Virus record (IMG/VR): IMGVR_UViG_3300033273_000374
Span: 128,001 to 192,000 of that record
Length of the DNA stretch: 64,000 nt
Direction: 5' to 3' (one strand)
Origin: a virus
Lineage: Duplodnaviria; Heunggongvirae; Uroviricota; Caudoviricetes
The stretch's first letter is position 1. Every line of letters begins with the position of its first letter. The position numbers and the translations under genes were made by a program. Positions 26,687-31,349 of the stretch are shown here, piece by piece. The notes under the pieces were generated by a model. It was given only the letters and a program-made list of their open reading frames with translations. It was not told the origin of the DNA and did no database searches.

Positions 26687-27570
26687 TAACATTTTCCACA
26701 GTTAAAAACGCAATAGTCATAACGTTCAGTTTGTATTGTACTATAGAATTCGTCAAAATACCTAATTTGTTCACTGAGTTTGGTTGTTGTTATGTTGTGT
26801 TTGCTACGATCATGCCACCATTTGCTTTTATAATAAAATTCATAATGAGTCATCATACAACAAGGACTATAAATTCCTCTTGAACTTATGTAGTGTTCAA
26901 CTCCAGTTTTGCATATTGGATCTATCTCAAAATCTTTTTGATTTTGTTTTTTATAAAGTTGTTGAACTGTGTCACGTGGACCTATGTATTTTGTAGGTCT
27001 TAATGGATCATCGTTCAACCAACGATCGCTTGGCTCTACTCTAAATTCGTCAATACCAAAACTGTTGGCAATCTTTCTGGTATGTTCTATATCATGTTCA
27101 TTGAAACTAAAAGGTATATACCTCCACATTGTTCTAGCTGGACCTGCAACACATTCTTCTATGCCAATTTTTATAGTGTTCCAGTCTGCATTTACTCGGT
27201 ACTGAGTAAAGTTTTCGGGTGTGCCATCAATACTAAATTTTACACTATCAATTGGGCGTAGCACTTGATTAAACTTTTGCCACCAATTGCGAGTCTTGTA
27301 ACTTCCGTTAGTAGTGATATGCATGCGATTGCATTTTTTTGTTAGCACATCAACTAGTTCTATAAACTTGCGATGATATATTGGATCACCTGTATTACCG
27401 CATAAATTAATATCGTCTACTGGTGTATCTATAAATGATTCTAATGCATCTATATCAATGTCGTTTATAGCAAAGTTTTTCTTTCCAAACCTGTCCATAA
27501 AAGTTGTGCGCTCGCATCTAGGACATGCAAGTGTACATCTGCTAGTGGGTTCAATGTGCAAACTAACCAA
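26686..27570 (-). CDS. Radical SAM protein with C-terminal Cys cluster
   Basis: CTLACPRC, GDP, TNG, SIDG, PCC, C...C. Confidence 0.88.
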   Translation of the reverse strand: MVSLHIEPTSRCTLACPRCERTTFMDRFGKKNFAINDIDIDALESFIDTPVDDINLCGNTGDPIYHRKFIELVDVLTKKCNRMHITTNGSYKTRNWWQKFNQVLRPIDSVKFSIDGTPENFTQYRVNADWNTIKIGIEECVAGPARTMWRYIPFSFNEHDIEHTRKIANSFGIDEFRVEPSDRWLNDDPLRPTKYIGPRDTVQQLYKKQNQKDFEIDPICKTGVEHYISSRGIYSPCCMMTHYEFYYKSKWWHDRSKHNITTTKLSEQIRYFDEFYSTIQTERYDYCVFNCGKC

Positions 27571-28528
27571 GGCGTTTTCTCAACAGATTAATTTTTAAAC
27601 TGTTTGATTGTTTTGCATCAAGTATGCTTTTGAGTGTAAACAGTTTACCATAACGCACAACAGCATCATTTACATCTTTAACATCGTTGTGCCATTCAGG
27701 AAAACTCACACTCCATCCATATTCTAATGCATCATCTATCAAACGTTGTCCTGCTCTATCTCTGTCCGGCACCAATATAACTTCTCTAGCCAATGTGTCA
27801 ATGATTTGTGCTTGTTGTTCACTGCACTGATTGCTCATTATGCCCACACCACCTATGCACATTGCATCCAACAGTCCTTCAGTGACCACACAAAACCTAG
27901 CATTAGACAACTGATTATCAATACCATACACATAGCCACTGTCATGGTTAGTAAAGTATTTGGGTCTACCTGTATCGTCTGTGGTCCTTGCACTGAATCC
28001 TATAACTTCGTTGTTCCAAGTGAAAGGCACAATGATGCGTTTCCACATGCCTGCAGGTTTGCTGTTGCTCCATAATAATTTATGCACAGGCAAACATCTG
28101 TCAACAGCATACTGTTGTATGTGTTTGGGCGCACGATCTAATGCTACCACTCCTTCTGGCAATGGTCGAGGTTTAAACTCTACAACAATAGCATCTTCGT
28201 CTGGTTCCAACAGTTCAACTGTGTCTTTGATACGCAGTGCTTCAATGTTTAGCATCTGTCGTGTGTTTTCGTCAATGCCCAACCATGTAAGCAGTTTGCG
28301 CAGTTTAAAACTGATGTGCCGGCCGGGCTGCCAGCCTGTTTTAAATCCACAGTTGAAACAGTGATAACTCACAGCATCACCATTCATTATCACACCGCCT
28401 CTGCCTCTACGATCTGTGCTTTCGCCATTGTGATGACAGCATACAGCATTAAACGAAATCCAACCACCACTGCTGGTTTTACGCTTGCCAGGCAACGCAT
28501 CAAATACACTTTGTTGTATACTATTCAT
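27563..28528 (-). CDS. DNA primase (gp61-like)
   Basis: Zn ribbon CC...HCFNCG, PKY, TEG.LDA, PDRD.AG, KDVND (TOPRIM). Confidence 0.9.
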   Translation of the reverse strand: MNSIQQSVFDALPGKRKTSSGGWISFNAVCCHHNGESTDRRGRGGVIMNGDAVSYHCFNCGFKTGWQPGRHISFKLRKLLTWLGIDENTRQMLNIEALRIKDTVELLEPDEDAIVVEFKPRPLPEGVVALDRAPKHIQQYAVDRCLPVHKLLWSNSKPAGMWKRIIVPFTWNNEVIGFSARTTDDTGRPKYFTNHDSGYVYGIDNQLSNARFCVVTEGLLDAMCIGGVGIMSNQCSEQQAQIIDTLAREVILVPDRDRAGQRLIDDALEYGWSVSFPEWHNDVKDVNDAVVRYGKLFTLKSILDAKQSNSLKINLLRKRLG

Positions 28529-29085
28529 GTGTTTATTATAGCATCTAACTCGTTTTTGATCAATTGAAAAATACGTTTGTGTCCTCGCCCATTTGGATGC
28601 AAGTGATCAGCAATGTACTGTTTTCTGTCCTGCATCAACACATCTACCATGTGTGGCACACAGTTGATATGCATGTGTTTGATACCTCGTAGTTCACAAG
28701 CATTAGAGACTATTTGTTTTGGGTACCAGTCATGCACATCTTCAATATAGTTGCTTAATTGGTTGTTTACATAATCTACTACACTTGCTGTTAGCAGACT
28801 GCCACGTTTCTTTTGTTGTATGTAGTTGAGATGCTCCCAACAACCTGTGTGGTTATTGTACCAACTGTTGCGATTGGGATGTGACCACCCAAACAGCACC
28901 ACATCATCTGATTGTATCTGGTGTTGCGTTTCGCAAAAATGTAGTGCTATCCATGGATTACTGGCACTGCTCTGACTGTGCTGTACAAAATCATAACCAT
29001 AATGGTCAGCGGCTATAAGCCCATAACAGGTAGTGGCTTCTTCTCCTAGGCTTACACTGCAACCATATTGATGTATAGTAGGCAT
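28525..29085 (-). CDS. SGNH-like hydrolase/acyltransferase
   Basis: GCS, SN, WS...R, HPN..GH. Confidence 0.55.
   Translation of the reverse strand: MPTIHQYGCSVSLGEEATTCYGLIAADHYGYDFVQHSQSSASNPWIALHFCETQHQIQSDDVVLFGWSHPNRNSWYNNHTGCWEHLNYIQQKKRGSLLTASVVDYVNNQLSNYIEDVHDWYPKQIVSNACELRGIKHMHINCVPHMVDVLMQDRKQYIADHLHPNGRGHKRIFQLIKNELDAIINT
28535..28563 (-). promoter_or_regulatory. Sigma70-type promoter, leaderless primase mRNA
   Basis: TTGATC-N17-TATAAT-N6-ATG. Confidence 0.65.
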
Positions 29086-29768
29086 CAGTATCTATCCACA
29101 CAGTAACCATCATACCAGTGTTGATCCTGAATCCAGGTGTGGTTGCGTACTTTTTCCTCTGCAGCAGCAAACTCTAATCTTGTCTTATCATCAACTTCTA
29201 GTTCAGGTAAAACATAATCCAAATAGTTTATGTGCTGTTGTGGTGTTGGATGGTAGTCATCATCAAATGCTGCATTGTGCCAATCACCTTTATAGATGAT
29301 GTTGTGTACACTGGGTCTAATTGTTTGTAGTGTCTTTGCATATGTTTGTGTTGGATCATGAAACAACTGTATCTCTTGATCACTGTCAAAGATATTTAAA
29401 TCAATCATGCTTAAAAAATAATATTCACACCCAATACCTTCTAGTATAAGTTTTGCTGCGTGTATGTTAGCACAATCTCTAATAAAACTGCCATAGGTAT
29501 CTACGATTGTAGCACCAGGTGTTTGCCACGATCCATCACTATAACTGTCTTCTCTATCACGTGATGTCCACATAACAATCACAGTGTCGTCAGCTGAAAT
29601 AGTGTGCCTTGCATCACATTCTGCAATGCTCCACAGTATAAAACTATTGCCACCACCACCTTTTCCAAAGTTGTAGTATTGATCAAACTGAGGTGCTAGA
29701 GCATCTGCCCATGTGGGCCACTTGTAGCGTGTAAAACTACAACCAAATGTAAACAATCTGCCATGCAT
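29085..29768 (-). CDS. SGNH-like hydrolase/acyltransferase
   Basis: FGCSFT, G.GN, WT...RED, DYHPTP..H. Confidence 0.6.
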   Translation of the reverse strand: MHGRLFTFGCSFTRYKWPTWADALAPQFDQYYNFGKGGGGNSFILWSIAECDARHTISADDTVIVMWTSRDREDSYSDGSWQTPGATIVDTYGSFIRDCANIHAAKLILEGIGCEYYFLSMIDLNIFDSDQEIQLFHDPTQTYAKTLQTIRPSVHNIIYKGDWHNAAFDDDYHPTPQQHINYLDYVLPELEVDDKTRLEFAAAEEKVRNHTWIQDQHWYDGYCVDRY

Positions 29769-29784
29769 ACATTTAATTATACCT

Positions 29785-29814
29785 AAAAAAAAGCAGGCAA
29801 ATAAAATGCCTGCT
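29785..29814 (-). terminator. Rho-independent terminator closing micro-ORF operon
   Basis: AGCAGGCA-loop-TGCCTGCT followed by T-run. Confidence 0.85.
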
Positions 29815-29828
29815 CATCTTTACCGACT

Positions 29829-29885
29829 TTACTTTTTTGTTTTACGAGTAAAAAACTCTACTTCTTCGTCTGTGTAAGGATACAT
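29829..29885 (-). CDS. 18-aa micro-ORF MYPYTDEEVEFFTRKTKK
   Basis: TGATG coupling to upstream micro-ORF; ends before terminator. Confidence 0.45.
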   Translation of the reverse strand: MYPYTDEEVEFFTRKTKK

Positions 29886-29983
29886 CACACTGTGCCTGCT
29901 ATTAACACCGGTAGCAATAGATATCCTGCTTGAATTCCAAACAGTATACTACAACCTAATGCTGCTTTAAGTACATTCATCAT
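29885..29983 (-). CDS. 32-aa hydrophobic micro-protein
   Basis: MMNVLKAALGCSILFGIQAGYLLLPVLIAGTV; GGAG SD, ATGA coupling. Confidence 0.55.
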   Translation of the reverse strand: MMNVLKAALGCSILFGIQAGYLLLPVLIAGTV

Positions 29984-30108
29984 AGTGTCTCCAACCTTTT
30001 TGCTTCTGCATGGTAACCAAGACGAATAAGTTCCGCTGCTGCCTTAGCACGGCCTGCTCGTCCTAGCATTTCCCAAAATTTATTTGCACATTTTGTTACT
30101 GTTTGCAT
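29980..30108 (-). CDS. 42-aa small protein
   Basis: MQTVTKCANKFWEMLGRAGRAKAAAELIRLGYHAEAKRLETL; AGGTGG SD. Confidence 0.65.
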   Translation of the reverse strand: MQTVTKCANKFWEMLGRAGRAKAAAELIRLGYHAEAKRLETL

Positions 30109-30109
30109 T

Positions 30110-30244
30110 TTATATCCACCTTTTTGTATCATATGAATAACGCTTCATAATTTCTTCTACGTCATATGTGTTTTTTGCATATTGTAGTTCTTTTTCCATT
30201 GGAGTCATTGTTATTTTTTTCCAAAGTTTTTTAATGTTACACAT
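30110..30244 (-). CDS. 44-aa small protein
   Basis: MCNIKKLWKK...LQYAKNTYDVEEIMKRY; AGGAG SD. Confidence 0.6.
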   Translation of the reverse strand: MCNIKKLWKKITMTPMEKELQYAKNTYDVEEIMKRYSYDTKRWI

Positions 30245-30407
30245 TATAATCAACTCCTGCAACCAGTGGGTGTTTGTCCAAGATTTCACTGTATGCTTGT
30301 TGCCATTGATCGCCATATTCTATGCGATACCAGTCTTCAACATGTTTGCTACGGTCTGGTTGTGATCCAAAAACCGTCTGTAGATCATCAAACAACTTTG
30401 CAGTCAT
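30237..30407 (-). CDS. 56-aa small protein
   Basis: MTAKLFDD...WYRIEY; AGGAG SD. The longer 125-aa call runs through the RNA leader. Confidence 0.65.
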   Translation of the reverse strand: MTAKLFDDLQTVFGSQPDRSKHVEDWYRIEYGDQWQQAYSEILDKHPLVAGVDYNV

Positions 30408-30430: not shown

Positions 30431-30578
30431 GATGCTTGAGGAAAGCAATACCGCGGTCTCTTCCGCCGTCTCCACGATGCCTGTTTGCAGCACCACTTGT
30501 AAGGCATGGGATATGCCCTGGTCTTTCCCAGTGCCACTCATTTTTTCTGAGCTGAGGTCGCTCTGTGCAATGCACAAT
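30431..30578 (-). ncRNA. Candidate structured ncRNA / 5' leader with ~8 short hairpins
   Basis: GC-rich island directly after TATAAATA (30581-88); hairpins TGTGC, GAGC, CTGG, GGCAT, CTG, CGT, GCGG, TGCTT. Confidence 0.65.
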
Positions 30579-30644: not shown

Positions 30645-31349
30645 CTAAGCCAGTATCTTAGCGTCAATGTAAGGTATCATCTGTTCAACAAACAATTCAT
30701 GTCCACGTTCATTTGGGTGTTCGCCTCCGGCAAACACACTATCTCCATGTTGTGATCTTAACCAGTCGTGCATGTTGTTGTTACCCATAAATGTGTTATC
30801 AAATTTTGGATATACAACAGGGCTTAGGTCACCTTCATAACCTTTTGTTGGAGGAAGTGCATTGAATTGTACATAACGTGCACCATACTGTTTTAACAAT
30901 GCATTGGTGCTCATGCGAAGTGTAACGTCCCATTGCCTCTGATGTCCCAAACTGTGTTTGATCCATTCAACCACACTGTTTCTAAAACAAGCATCACCAG
31001 GATGTGGATTGTCATTGAATCTTACAAAGCCTGAATGAACCCAACGGTCTTCGTCATCATGATACCAACTCATTCTATCTATGCTGGTCCATGCAACTGC
31101 TATAAACAAATCTTCTCGTGGTGTAGGATTTTGTTGTATGTATTCGCATACAGTTTGCCATATGTATGTGTTACTACCACTGGGCTGGCCTCTGTTGTCA
31201 TAGGTTGCACCATAGTGCTGCGCCAGACGTCCAAGCCACACATGCTGTTCTCTGTAACTAATATTTTCGTGATGTTGATCCCAAGTTGCGTTGGGTGCAA
31301 CAAGTTCGCTGCCGTAGGTAAAACTGCAGCCTATACCTATTATGTGCAT
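30645..31349 (-). CDS. SGNH-like hydrolase/acyltransferase
   Basis: GCSFTYG, GSN, WTS.DR, HPNERGH. Confidence 0.6.
   Translation of the reverse strand: MHIIGIGCSFTYGSELVAPNATWDQHHENISYREQHVWLGRLAQHYGATYDNRGQPSGSNTYIWQTVCEYIQQNPTPREDLFIAVAWTSIDRMSWYHDDEDRWVHSGFVRFNDNPHPGDACFRNSVVEWIKHSLGHQRQWDVTLRMSTNALLKQYGARYVQFNALPPTKGYEGDLSPVVYPKFDNTFMGNNNMHDWLRSQHGDSVFAGGEHPNERGHELFVEQMIPYIDAKILA

Follow-up and report, generated by a model that had tools for sequence, protein, structure and literature searches.

A conserved microprotein cassette behind a CCUC-hairpin leader RNA in uncultured marine giant phages

For the second gene slot of the operon described here, what is known of function is limited to bacterial DUF1127 proteins. 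In Rhodobacter sphaeroides, the RNA-binding protein CcaF1 shares its transcript with small RNAs (sRNAs) that carry CCUCCUCCC loops, and in Sinorhizobium such sRNAs lie in the 5' untranslated region (UTR) of DUF1127 genes (PMC8034643). DUF1127 proteins of Agrobacterium and E. coli bind the sensor kinase PhoR (PMC12501420), and Salmonella YjiS, another DUF1127 protein, is membrane-associated (PMC11707872). Among phages, small proteins have been recognised as a class (PMC11323111). A search of the literature found no paper describing DUF1127 or DUF3563 genes in phages, or the cassette that is our subject: an operon of five microprotein genes in the window, by which we mean the whole 64,000-nucleotide stretch analysed, positions 128001-192000 of the IMG/VR viral record IMGVR_UViG_3300033273_000374. 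This record of 202,913 bases is judged ~57% complete and therefore stems from a giant phage. We report that the operon is one copy of a conserved microprotein cassette of an uncultured marine giant phage lineage.

The operon runs along the minus strand from 30407 to 29829 (coordinates of all open reading frames, ORFs, include the stop codon). ORF1 (56 amino acids, aa; 30407-30237) opens with AGGAG-N8-ATG. The ATG of ORF2 (44 aa; 30244-30110) lies within ATGTGTAA and overlaps ORF1 by 8 nt, ORF3 (42 aa; 30108-29980) follows after a 1-nt spacer with GGTGGA upstream, and ORF4 (32 aa; 29983-29885) and ORF5 (18 aa; 29885-29829) are joined to the preceding genes by an ATGA and a TGATG overlap, respectively. 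These junctions of -8, +1, -4 and -1 nt are of the size expected of translationally coupled genes. The first-pass annotation of this DNA had described five tightly packed ORFs forming a self-contained unit of promoter, leader and terminator, and each of these elements was indeed recovered in place: a T4-type late promoter box TATAAATA, read directly at 30588-30581, a conserved 5' leader RNA of 173 nt between this box and ORF1 (30580-30408), and an intrinsic terminator found by scanning at 29815-29783 (GAGCAGGCA-loop7-TGCCTGCTT followed by T8; stem 29815-29791, 9 pairs of which 5 are G-C), all on the minus strand.

A search through the flanking genes led to two loci, L001 and L003, that have ORF1-, ORF3- and ORF5-like peptides behind the same promoter and leader and different genes otherwise. 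A single-query search of viral contigs with ORF1 gave no relative; the leader motif succeeded instead. Its exact 19-nt form GGTATTGCTTYCCTCAAGC is present in at least 119 viral contigs, and the exact motif TGGCACTGGGAAAGAC gave 82 matches with 20 true loci. Removal of duplicates from the leader-motif matches left 94 non-redundant loci, the window counted in. Hidden Markov models (HMMs) of the protein families, built from few seed peptides, were then run on all stop-to-stop frames 3' of the motif. Family F1, to which ORF1 belongs, was found in 86 of the 94 loci, F3 (ORF3) in 89 and F5 (ORF5) in 54; DUF3563-type proteins (ORF2) occur in 29, while DUF1127-type proteins (59 loci) and the 44-aa family F44 (31 loci) have no counterpart among the window ORFs. 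The order is nearly fixed, namely F1, then DUF3563 or DUF1127, then F3, a variable slot, and F44 and/or F5. Complete operons mostly comprise four or five genes, with a median of 833 nt from the leader motif to the last stop and junctions that are mostly -1, -4 or -8 nt. The arrangement of the window, F1-DUF3563-F3-F5, is the most frequent single type (18/94 loci).

Could such ORFs be chance frames, or untranslated parts of a non-coding RNA? The frames are tiny, the Shine-Dalgarno (SD) sites of ORF4 and ORF5 themselves are weak or absent, and the window peptides alone match no database family. Nevertheless, this explanation is already contradicted, and we regard it as highly improbable, since homologous open frames are maintained in dozens of diverged loci and carry the marks of coding sequence. 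The ratio of non-synonymous to synonymous differences (pN/pS, Nei-Gojobori, pooled over pairs at 80-98% nucleotide identity) is 0.25 for F1, 0.26 for DUF1127, 0.31 for the DUF3563-type proteins, 0.31 for F3, 0.19 for F44 and 0.15 for F5, values that are descriptive rather than tests because the pairs are non-independent. When the same alignments are shifted by one or two bases, pN/pS rises to 0.7-1.8 (1.71 and 1.31 for F1), so that low values are confined to the proposed frames; despite the pooling of pairs, the contrast between frames is large and consistent. Changes are concentrated at third codon positions (52/34/235 by position in F5). Called starts are ATG save three cases, and SD-like sites precede 71-94% of them, far above the 23% seen for all ATGs in these regions.

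Furthermore, the window peptides were scored against HMMs built from the other loci only, with 2000 shuffles of each peptide as control. ORF1 reached 39.4 bits (best shuffle 8.1), ORF2 39.4 (9.8), ORF3 45.6 (14.9) and ORF5 24.3 (7.5). Altogether, comparative evidence indicates that all five ORFs are genuine protein genes, conserved and subject to purifying selection. The first-pass annotation had named absence of these frames from homologous loci as an outcome that would speak against it, and selection across related phages as a check; the frames proved conserved in homologous loci, and selection acts in them.

Transcription of the unit appears to follow the T4-type late pattern, in which the box stands close upstream of the transcript and no -35 element is needed; the window has its box in that position. 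Of the 93 related loci, 52 have the exact box at a distance of 66-168 nt on the upstream side of the conserved CCUC motif, and 28 more have NATAAATA variants of it. A consensus scan also picked up a sigma-70-like promoter, TTGACA-17-TATTAT, at 30614-30586 (minus; 11/12 matches), which overlaps the late box; given this overlap, the operon might be transcribed both early and late.

The leader has the highest G+C content of its neighbourhood (0.47-0.49) and contains two hairpins with CCUC in the loop, GAGC-GACCUCA-GCUC at 30563-30549 and the terminal UGCUU-UCCUC-AAGCA at 30447-30433 (both minus). The terminal hairpin, UGCUU-YCCUC-AAGCA, is letter-identical across the contigs bearing the motif, whereas an upstream CCUC-loop hairpin is shared by 29 of 93 leaders. 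The motif GGTATTGCTTYCCTCAAGC has a single occurrence in the 203-kb record that contains the window. Folded as a single sequence, the window leader shows nothing unusual (z -0.44). At the extreme 5' end of the leader stands a perfect palindrome, TGTGCA-T-TGCACA (30565-30577, minus), where the relatives have different inverted repeats; it could be an operator or merely the first hairpin. At the other end of the unit, a hairpin and T-run likewise follow F5 in L003, L008, L061, L072 and L096; under a strict criterion, 17 of 51 loci have such a site.

ORF1 (F1) shows the family motif W-x-(K)-x-E-Y-x-x-D-W-x-x-A-Y and retains the invariant E30 and W35 as well as the near-invariant Y31, Y39, P47 and G51. 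Its database members fall into 422 clusters when grouped at 90% identity and into 221 when grouped at 50%, all of them small metagenome proteins without a Pfam domain; none of 37 members matched Pfam, and two of the 37 weakly match one unnamed PHROG. The AlphaFold2 (AF2) model of ORF1 has two helices at a predicted local distance difference test (pLDDT) score of 69, and an ESM Atlas search with ORF1 gave nothing usable. A relationship of F1 to the DUF3563-type family was considered and rejected (probability 18%). Longer F1 forms in databases were likewise set aside as gene-calling artefacts that run through the leader, one of them a chimera with a cytidylyltransferase fragment; public F1 gene calls (for example P0498 and P0402) often begin within the leader RNA and so acquire false N-terminal extensions that translate it.

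ORF3 carries the F3 core G-R-A-R-A-A-x-E-L-x-R-x-G-Y-x-x-E-A-K-x-L-M. Most F3 members have 55-73 aa and begin with a module made up of a CxxC and a run of hydrophobic residues; the window protein is a short form, reduced to the core and lacking both. At least 1141 clusters belong to the family, all of them free of Pfam domains. Searches with F3 members gave no PHROG match and no convincing Pfam match, one of 42 weakly matching a thiol-disulfide oxidoreductase family, which is unrelated, through its CxxC. The nearest ESM Atlas clusters of ORF3 are 100% viral and hypothetical. F3 and F44 are paralogues (hhalign 92%). The proposal that the ORF3 peptide GRAKAAAELIRLGYHAEAKRL is DUF1127-like had to be abandoned: none of the 42 F3 members matches DUF1127, and hhalign of F3 with the phage DUF1127 proteins aligns the N-terminal module and nothing else.

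ORF4, which sits in the variable slot, is predicted to be a single-pass membrane micropeptide (maximal 17-residue hydropathy 2.11), and 25 of the 94 loci have similarly built micropeptides of 31-41 aa at this position between F3 and F5. Its score against an HMM of these built without it is 16.4 bits (E 0.0017), which makes it the least secure of the five ORFs; as composition could inflate this score, the homology of ORF4 to the slot micropeptides is probable and not certain. ORF5 belongs to F5 (M-[WY]-P-Y-T-[DE]-[DE]-E-x-[DE]-[FW]-[LIV]-[SN]-G-[KR]), a family of acidic peptides of 13-26 aa that typically form the final gene before the terminator. The median isoelectric point (pI) of F5 is 4.1, versus 9.2-9.7 for F1, F3, F44 and the DUF1127- and DUF3563-type proteins.

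Searches of the window peptides against Pfam, PHROGs, NCBIfam and PADLOC gave nothing significant, and F1, F3 and F5 as families have no convincing match in these four either. With PADLOC, which covers anti-phage defence and toxin-antitoxin systems, neither the window peptides nor their relatives gave a match. An HNH PHROG match of ORF1 (E 0.047) and an SRI Pfam match of ORF2 (E 0.05) were discarded as noise.

The second slot is the one that links the cassette to bacterial families. ORF2 aligns with same-slot proteins of 44-68 aa, and 17 of 21 of these homologues match the Pfam DUF3563 model PF12086 (best E 4e-9), two of them above its gathering cut-off of 26.9 bits (L008 with 31.4, L072 with 29.6). 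When the HMM is built without ORF2 and its three nearest relatives, ORF2 still scores 16.3 bits, as against 9.8 for the best of 2000 shuffles. A 91%-identical homologue (P0331) exists in European Nucleotide Archive data, and most of the 556 database relatives carry PF12086. Of the central block of DUF3563 (E-x-Y-L ... D-L-x-D-L-E-R-R), ORF2 keeps in part L20 and E30, both invariant, and the near-invariant position 29, where it has V; E-I stands in place of R-R after the block's E. Its AF2 model has three helices (pLDDT 73.5); a sequence search of the PDB with the DUF3563-type profile returned nothing. Comparison of the ORF2 subgroup with the Pfam-positive subgroup by hhalign gave a probability of 96.7% (E 4.2e-10, 46 columns, full length), and since this holds despite the failure of the Pfam model on ORF2 itself, we classify ORF2, by profile comparison, as a divergent DUF3563-type protein and not as a Pfam-defined member. 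The suggestion that the ORF2 peptide (LQYAKNTYDVEE) is a DUF3563 relative has thus held up. So has that of a DUF1127/DUF3563-like neighbourhood, as the 59 related operons with a DUF1127 protein have it in this slot, clearly above the PF06568 cut-off (44 bits versus 23.3). In the window itself, no peptide matches DUF1127 (PF06568, motif L-x-D-x-x-L-x-D-I-G).

In the variable slot of the relatives, the cargo is a cupredoxin with a signal-like N-terminus (PF00127) in 22 of 94 loci (among them L003:5800-6222, L061:4459-4923 and L136:8454-8885, with 19 further), DoxX in 12, an ATP-synthase c-like protein in at least three (L036, L071 and L088), or another membrane micropeptide. The Pfam matches on relatives are DUF1127, DUF3563, ATP-synt_C and Copper-bind. 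A peptide of 20-21 aa, M-I/L-D-P-D-H-T/S-Y-x-K-P-K-G-E-K-K-K-G-G-K, recurs in L003 (5734-5799), L089, L119, L139 and L166.

The genes flanking the window operon are shared with L003 only, of the 93 other loci; elsewhere the cassette is flanked by genes for lipase, inosine monophosphate (IMP) dehydrogenase/guanosine monophosphate (GMP) reductase, phosphoribosyl pyrophosphate (PRPP) synthetase or by unknown genes. Between the window and L003, DNA identity is 80-83% in the flanks, 73% in the leader, 59% in ORF1 and 52% in ORF3, and the gene content of the two operons differs too. The cassette is far more diverged than its flanks and therefore evolves, or is exchanged, at a much higher rate than the DNA around it. 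It has the look of an old unit of phages and behaves as a module that they exchange.

A C-terminal N-L-K/R-G-W-V tail is present on 42 of 55 DUF1127 proteins, 6 of 28 DUF3563-type proteins and 2 of 83 F1 proteins (window ORF2 ends in K-R-W-I), a YxPGDHYMRG tail on 8 of 83 F3 and 4 of 55 DUF1127 proteins, and an N-terminal CxxC on 47 of 83 F3 and 3 of 55 DUF1127 proteins. Such end modules on unrelated cores look like module shuffling among the microproteins. In fuller form, the shared modules read C-terminal N-L-K/R-G-W-V, C-terminal YxPGDHYMRGK...W-K-G-K-A-H-A and N-terminal T-Y-C-x-x-C; examples are L019:10400-10633, L184:2496-2684, L104:1284-1481 and L150:3278-3520.

With regard to distribution, relatives of F1, F3 and F5 are confined to viral and metagenomic data plus three contigs of two marine metagenome-assembled genomes (MAGs). 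NCBI contributes a few entries; these are MAG proteins annotated as hypothetical, and their contigs reach 340 kb. By tblastn, F1 and F3 gave no match in 50,697 GenBank phage records, and the operon region gave none by blastn against GenBank phages. In GTDB (185,579 species genomes) the leader motif had 20 matches, of which 3 were real loci in the 2 marine MAGs; the contigs concerned, L210 (PBPT01000016.1, 335 kb), L200 and L205, hold the full cassette, are assigned to Neomarinimicrobiota and Flavobacteriales, and are probably mis-binned giant-phage contigs. In the window's record the ORF3 family occurs once. The view of the first-pass annotation that the unit is a captured host cassette was therefore not borne out, given families restricted to such data and a unit exchanged among phages.

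What, then, might the cassette do? The products are of 2-7 kDa, mostly basic and helical where predicted; too small for enzymes, they probably act by binding. We lean, with moderate confidence, towards small proteins with a binding or regulatory role whose production falls late in infection. The late promoter would yield a transcript with the CCUC-loop leader and the five coupled genes; ribosomes would initiate at ORF1, and termination-reinitiation would carry expression down the operon. The slot-2 protein would act like its bacterial relatives by binding RNA, as CcaF1 does, or a sensor kinase such as PhoR, and the other products would serve as partner or membrane-tethering subunits.

Several observations weigh against this proposal. 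The late timing is read from the promoter consensus only, with a sigma-70-like promoter overlapping the box. PF12086 finds nothing in window ORF2 at E up to 0.1, nor in the whole record at E up to 10, and no publication on DUF3563, a family without known function, was found in the literature. The 203-kb record has no DUF1127 protein, so that DUF1127 biology is transferred by slot equivalence alone; a homology of DUF1127 and DUF3563-type proteins was rejected, as hhalign finds only a 7-residue C-tail in common. The acidic pI of window ORF1 (4.6) sets it apart from its family. The pairs behind the pN/pS values, as noted above, are non-independent. Finally, a thermodynamic test for masking of the ORF1 ribosome site by the leader was negative across 66 loci (probability of being unpaired 0.49 native versus 0.52 shuffled, p 0.19), the window alone giving 0.23 versus 0.49.

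That same negative result, with no sign that the leader merely masks the ribosome site of ORF1, speaks for another explanation, in which the cassette is a viral counterpart of CIN1: the cleaved leader would act in trans as an anti-SD sRNA on host or phage mRNAs, and the slot-2 protein would be the factor that matures or stabilises it. The invariance of the terminal hairpin in at least 119 viral contigs, the second CCUC-loop hairpin in the window and in other leaders, the DUF1127 gene in most related operons, and the bacterial precedent of CcaF1-bound sRNAs in the 5' or 3' UTR of DUF1127 genes (PMC8034643) all fit. The first-pass annotation had drawn this link to CCUC-loop RNAs, and CCUC-loop hairpins do stand in the leader; the leader, however, matched no Rfam family, cuckoo, ar14 and CcsR included, at the gathering score or at E up to 10. 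Moreover, its loops are 5-7 nt with a single CCUC (GACCUCA, UCCUC) and not CCUCCUCCC, the window has a DUF3563-type instead of a DUF1127 protein, the two cores being unrelated, and the most constant genes, F1, F3 and F5, have no bacterial counterpart. We hold this explanation, the main rival, to be doubtful. Rather unlikely, in our estimate, is a broader variant: a modular microprotein toolkit sharing its transcript with an anti-SD-type RNA, in which the end modules would dock unrelated helical cores (F1, F3/F44, DUF1127 and DUF3563-type) on one host target, as a viral analogue of the alphaproteobacterial DUF1127/cuckoo-sRNA stress circuit that, in the course of infection, reprograms host translation or two-component (e.g. 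phosphate) signalling.

Two further proposals were considered. The T4-type late box, the strongly basic character of most families next to one small acidic peptide, and the membrane micropeptide in 25 of 94 loci would suit a late structural or assembly role, with basic proteins and acidic F5 packaged with DNA as internal or ejected proteins, or aiding virion assembly or lysis timing, and with no regulation of the host. Yet the operon lies among replication and SGNH-like genes, not within a structural module, its gene content varies among close relatives, which is unusual for virion parts, no PHROG structural family was matched, and the cupredoxin, DoxX and ATP-synthase c cargo suggests host physiology; we therefore judge such a role quite unlikely. 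That cargo is in turn the starting point for a membrane or energy module, whose microproteins would be accessory or assembly subunits for these proteins and tune host respiration. Indeed, an extra ORF with a membrane-like segment is present in 33 of 73 complete operons, or in 47 of 73 if hydrophobic F3 N-termini are counted, and Salmonella YjiS offers a membrane-associated DUF1127 precedent (PMC11707872). But in about one third of the complete operons any membrane element is missing, the window carries none of this cargo and its ORF3 is without the hydrophobic N-terminus, and F1 and F5, both core families, have the composition of soluble proteins; we consider this proposal very unlikely. We retain late-made binding or regulatory proteins as the preferred reading.

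The operon is flanked by three SGNH/GDSL-like paralogues on the minus strand (28525-29085, 29085-29768 and 30645-31349), one with a DUF6071 match; a primase gene (27563-28528) adjoins them. The DUF6071/SGNH-like gene at 30645-31349 lies upstream of the intergenic stretch that precedes the operon. Directly behind the terminator follows the paralogue at 29768-29085, which starts 9 nt after GGTATAAT (within 29768-29800, minus) and may have a leaderless start or depend on read-through. In L003, an additional 62-aa gene on the opposite strand (L003:4697-4885, minus in that locus), absent from the window, sits between the DUF6071 gene and the promoter, and the 227-aa SGNH gene of the window is missing.

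As to its significance, the cassette defines three microprotein families without convincing database match, F1, F3/F44 and F5 (13-26 aa), and places DUF1127 and DUF3563 in phages. Its families amount to hundreds to more than 1000 clusters each at 90% identity in ocean metagenomes, and gene callers mostly overlook the genes or misread them by running through the leader. As DUF1127 and DUF3563 proteins are apparent alternatives in one slot, the cassette offers a first functional hint for DUF3563. In relatives, the operon doubles as an expression platform for auxiliary genes (cupredoxin, DoxX, ATP-synthase c). Marine phages interfere with host phosphate physiology; taken together with the binding of RNA and PhoR by DUF1127 proteins, this makes a direct test possible with synthetic genes and no phage culture.

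Comparison with described systems brings out what is particular to this unit. Like the bacterial DUF3563 proteins of Pfam (~50-65 aa), ORF2 is small, has predicted helices and shares in part the central E-K-x-L...[AS]-x-D/N-x-x-D/E-[LV]-E block, but D-L-E-R-R of the family is D-V-E-E-I in ORF2; a frequent addition in the phage forms, which stand in a phage operon behind a structured leader, is the C-terminal N-L-K/R-G-W-V tail. With the DUF1127 proteins (CcaF1 of R. sphaeroides, the small DUF1127 proteins, SDPs, of Agrobacterium, and YjiS) the cassette has in common basic microproteins, which hold the same slot in 59 of 94 phage loci, and the bacterial ones are co-transcribed with CCUC-rich sRNAs (PMC8034643); no window ORF is one of them, however, and the phage forms carry extra N- and C-terminal modules.

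CIN1 of Alphaproteobacteria (cuckoo/CcsR/NfeR with DUF1127) likewise couples a structured CCUC-loop RNA to co-transcribed small-protein genes, and the Sinorhizobium RNAs also lie in the 5' UTR (PMC8034643). In contrast, the window leader has no covariance-model match and shorter loops with a single CCUC, a phage late promoter takes the place of RpoHI/HII, and the adjacent DUF1127 gene on the same transcript is absent in the window, though present in 59 of 94 relatives; the phage unit numbers four to five genes, and for the families of three of these no bacterial member is known. Small-protein genes of phages, taken as a class, are similarly tiny, often missed by annotation and thought to bind host or phage partners (PMC11323111). 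Here, by comparison, they form a fixed, ordered and coupled five-gene cassette with a leader RNA and terminator of its own, conserved across many uncultured marine phages.

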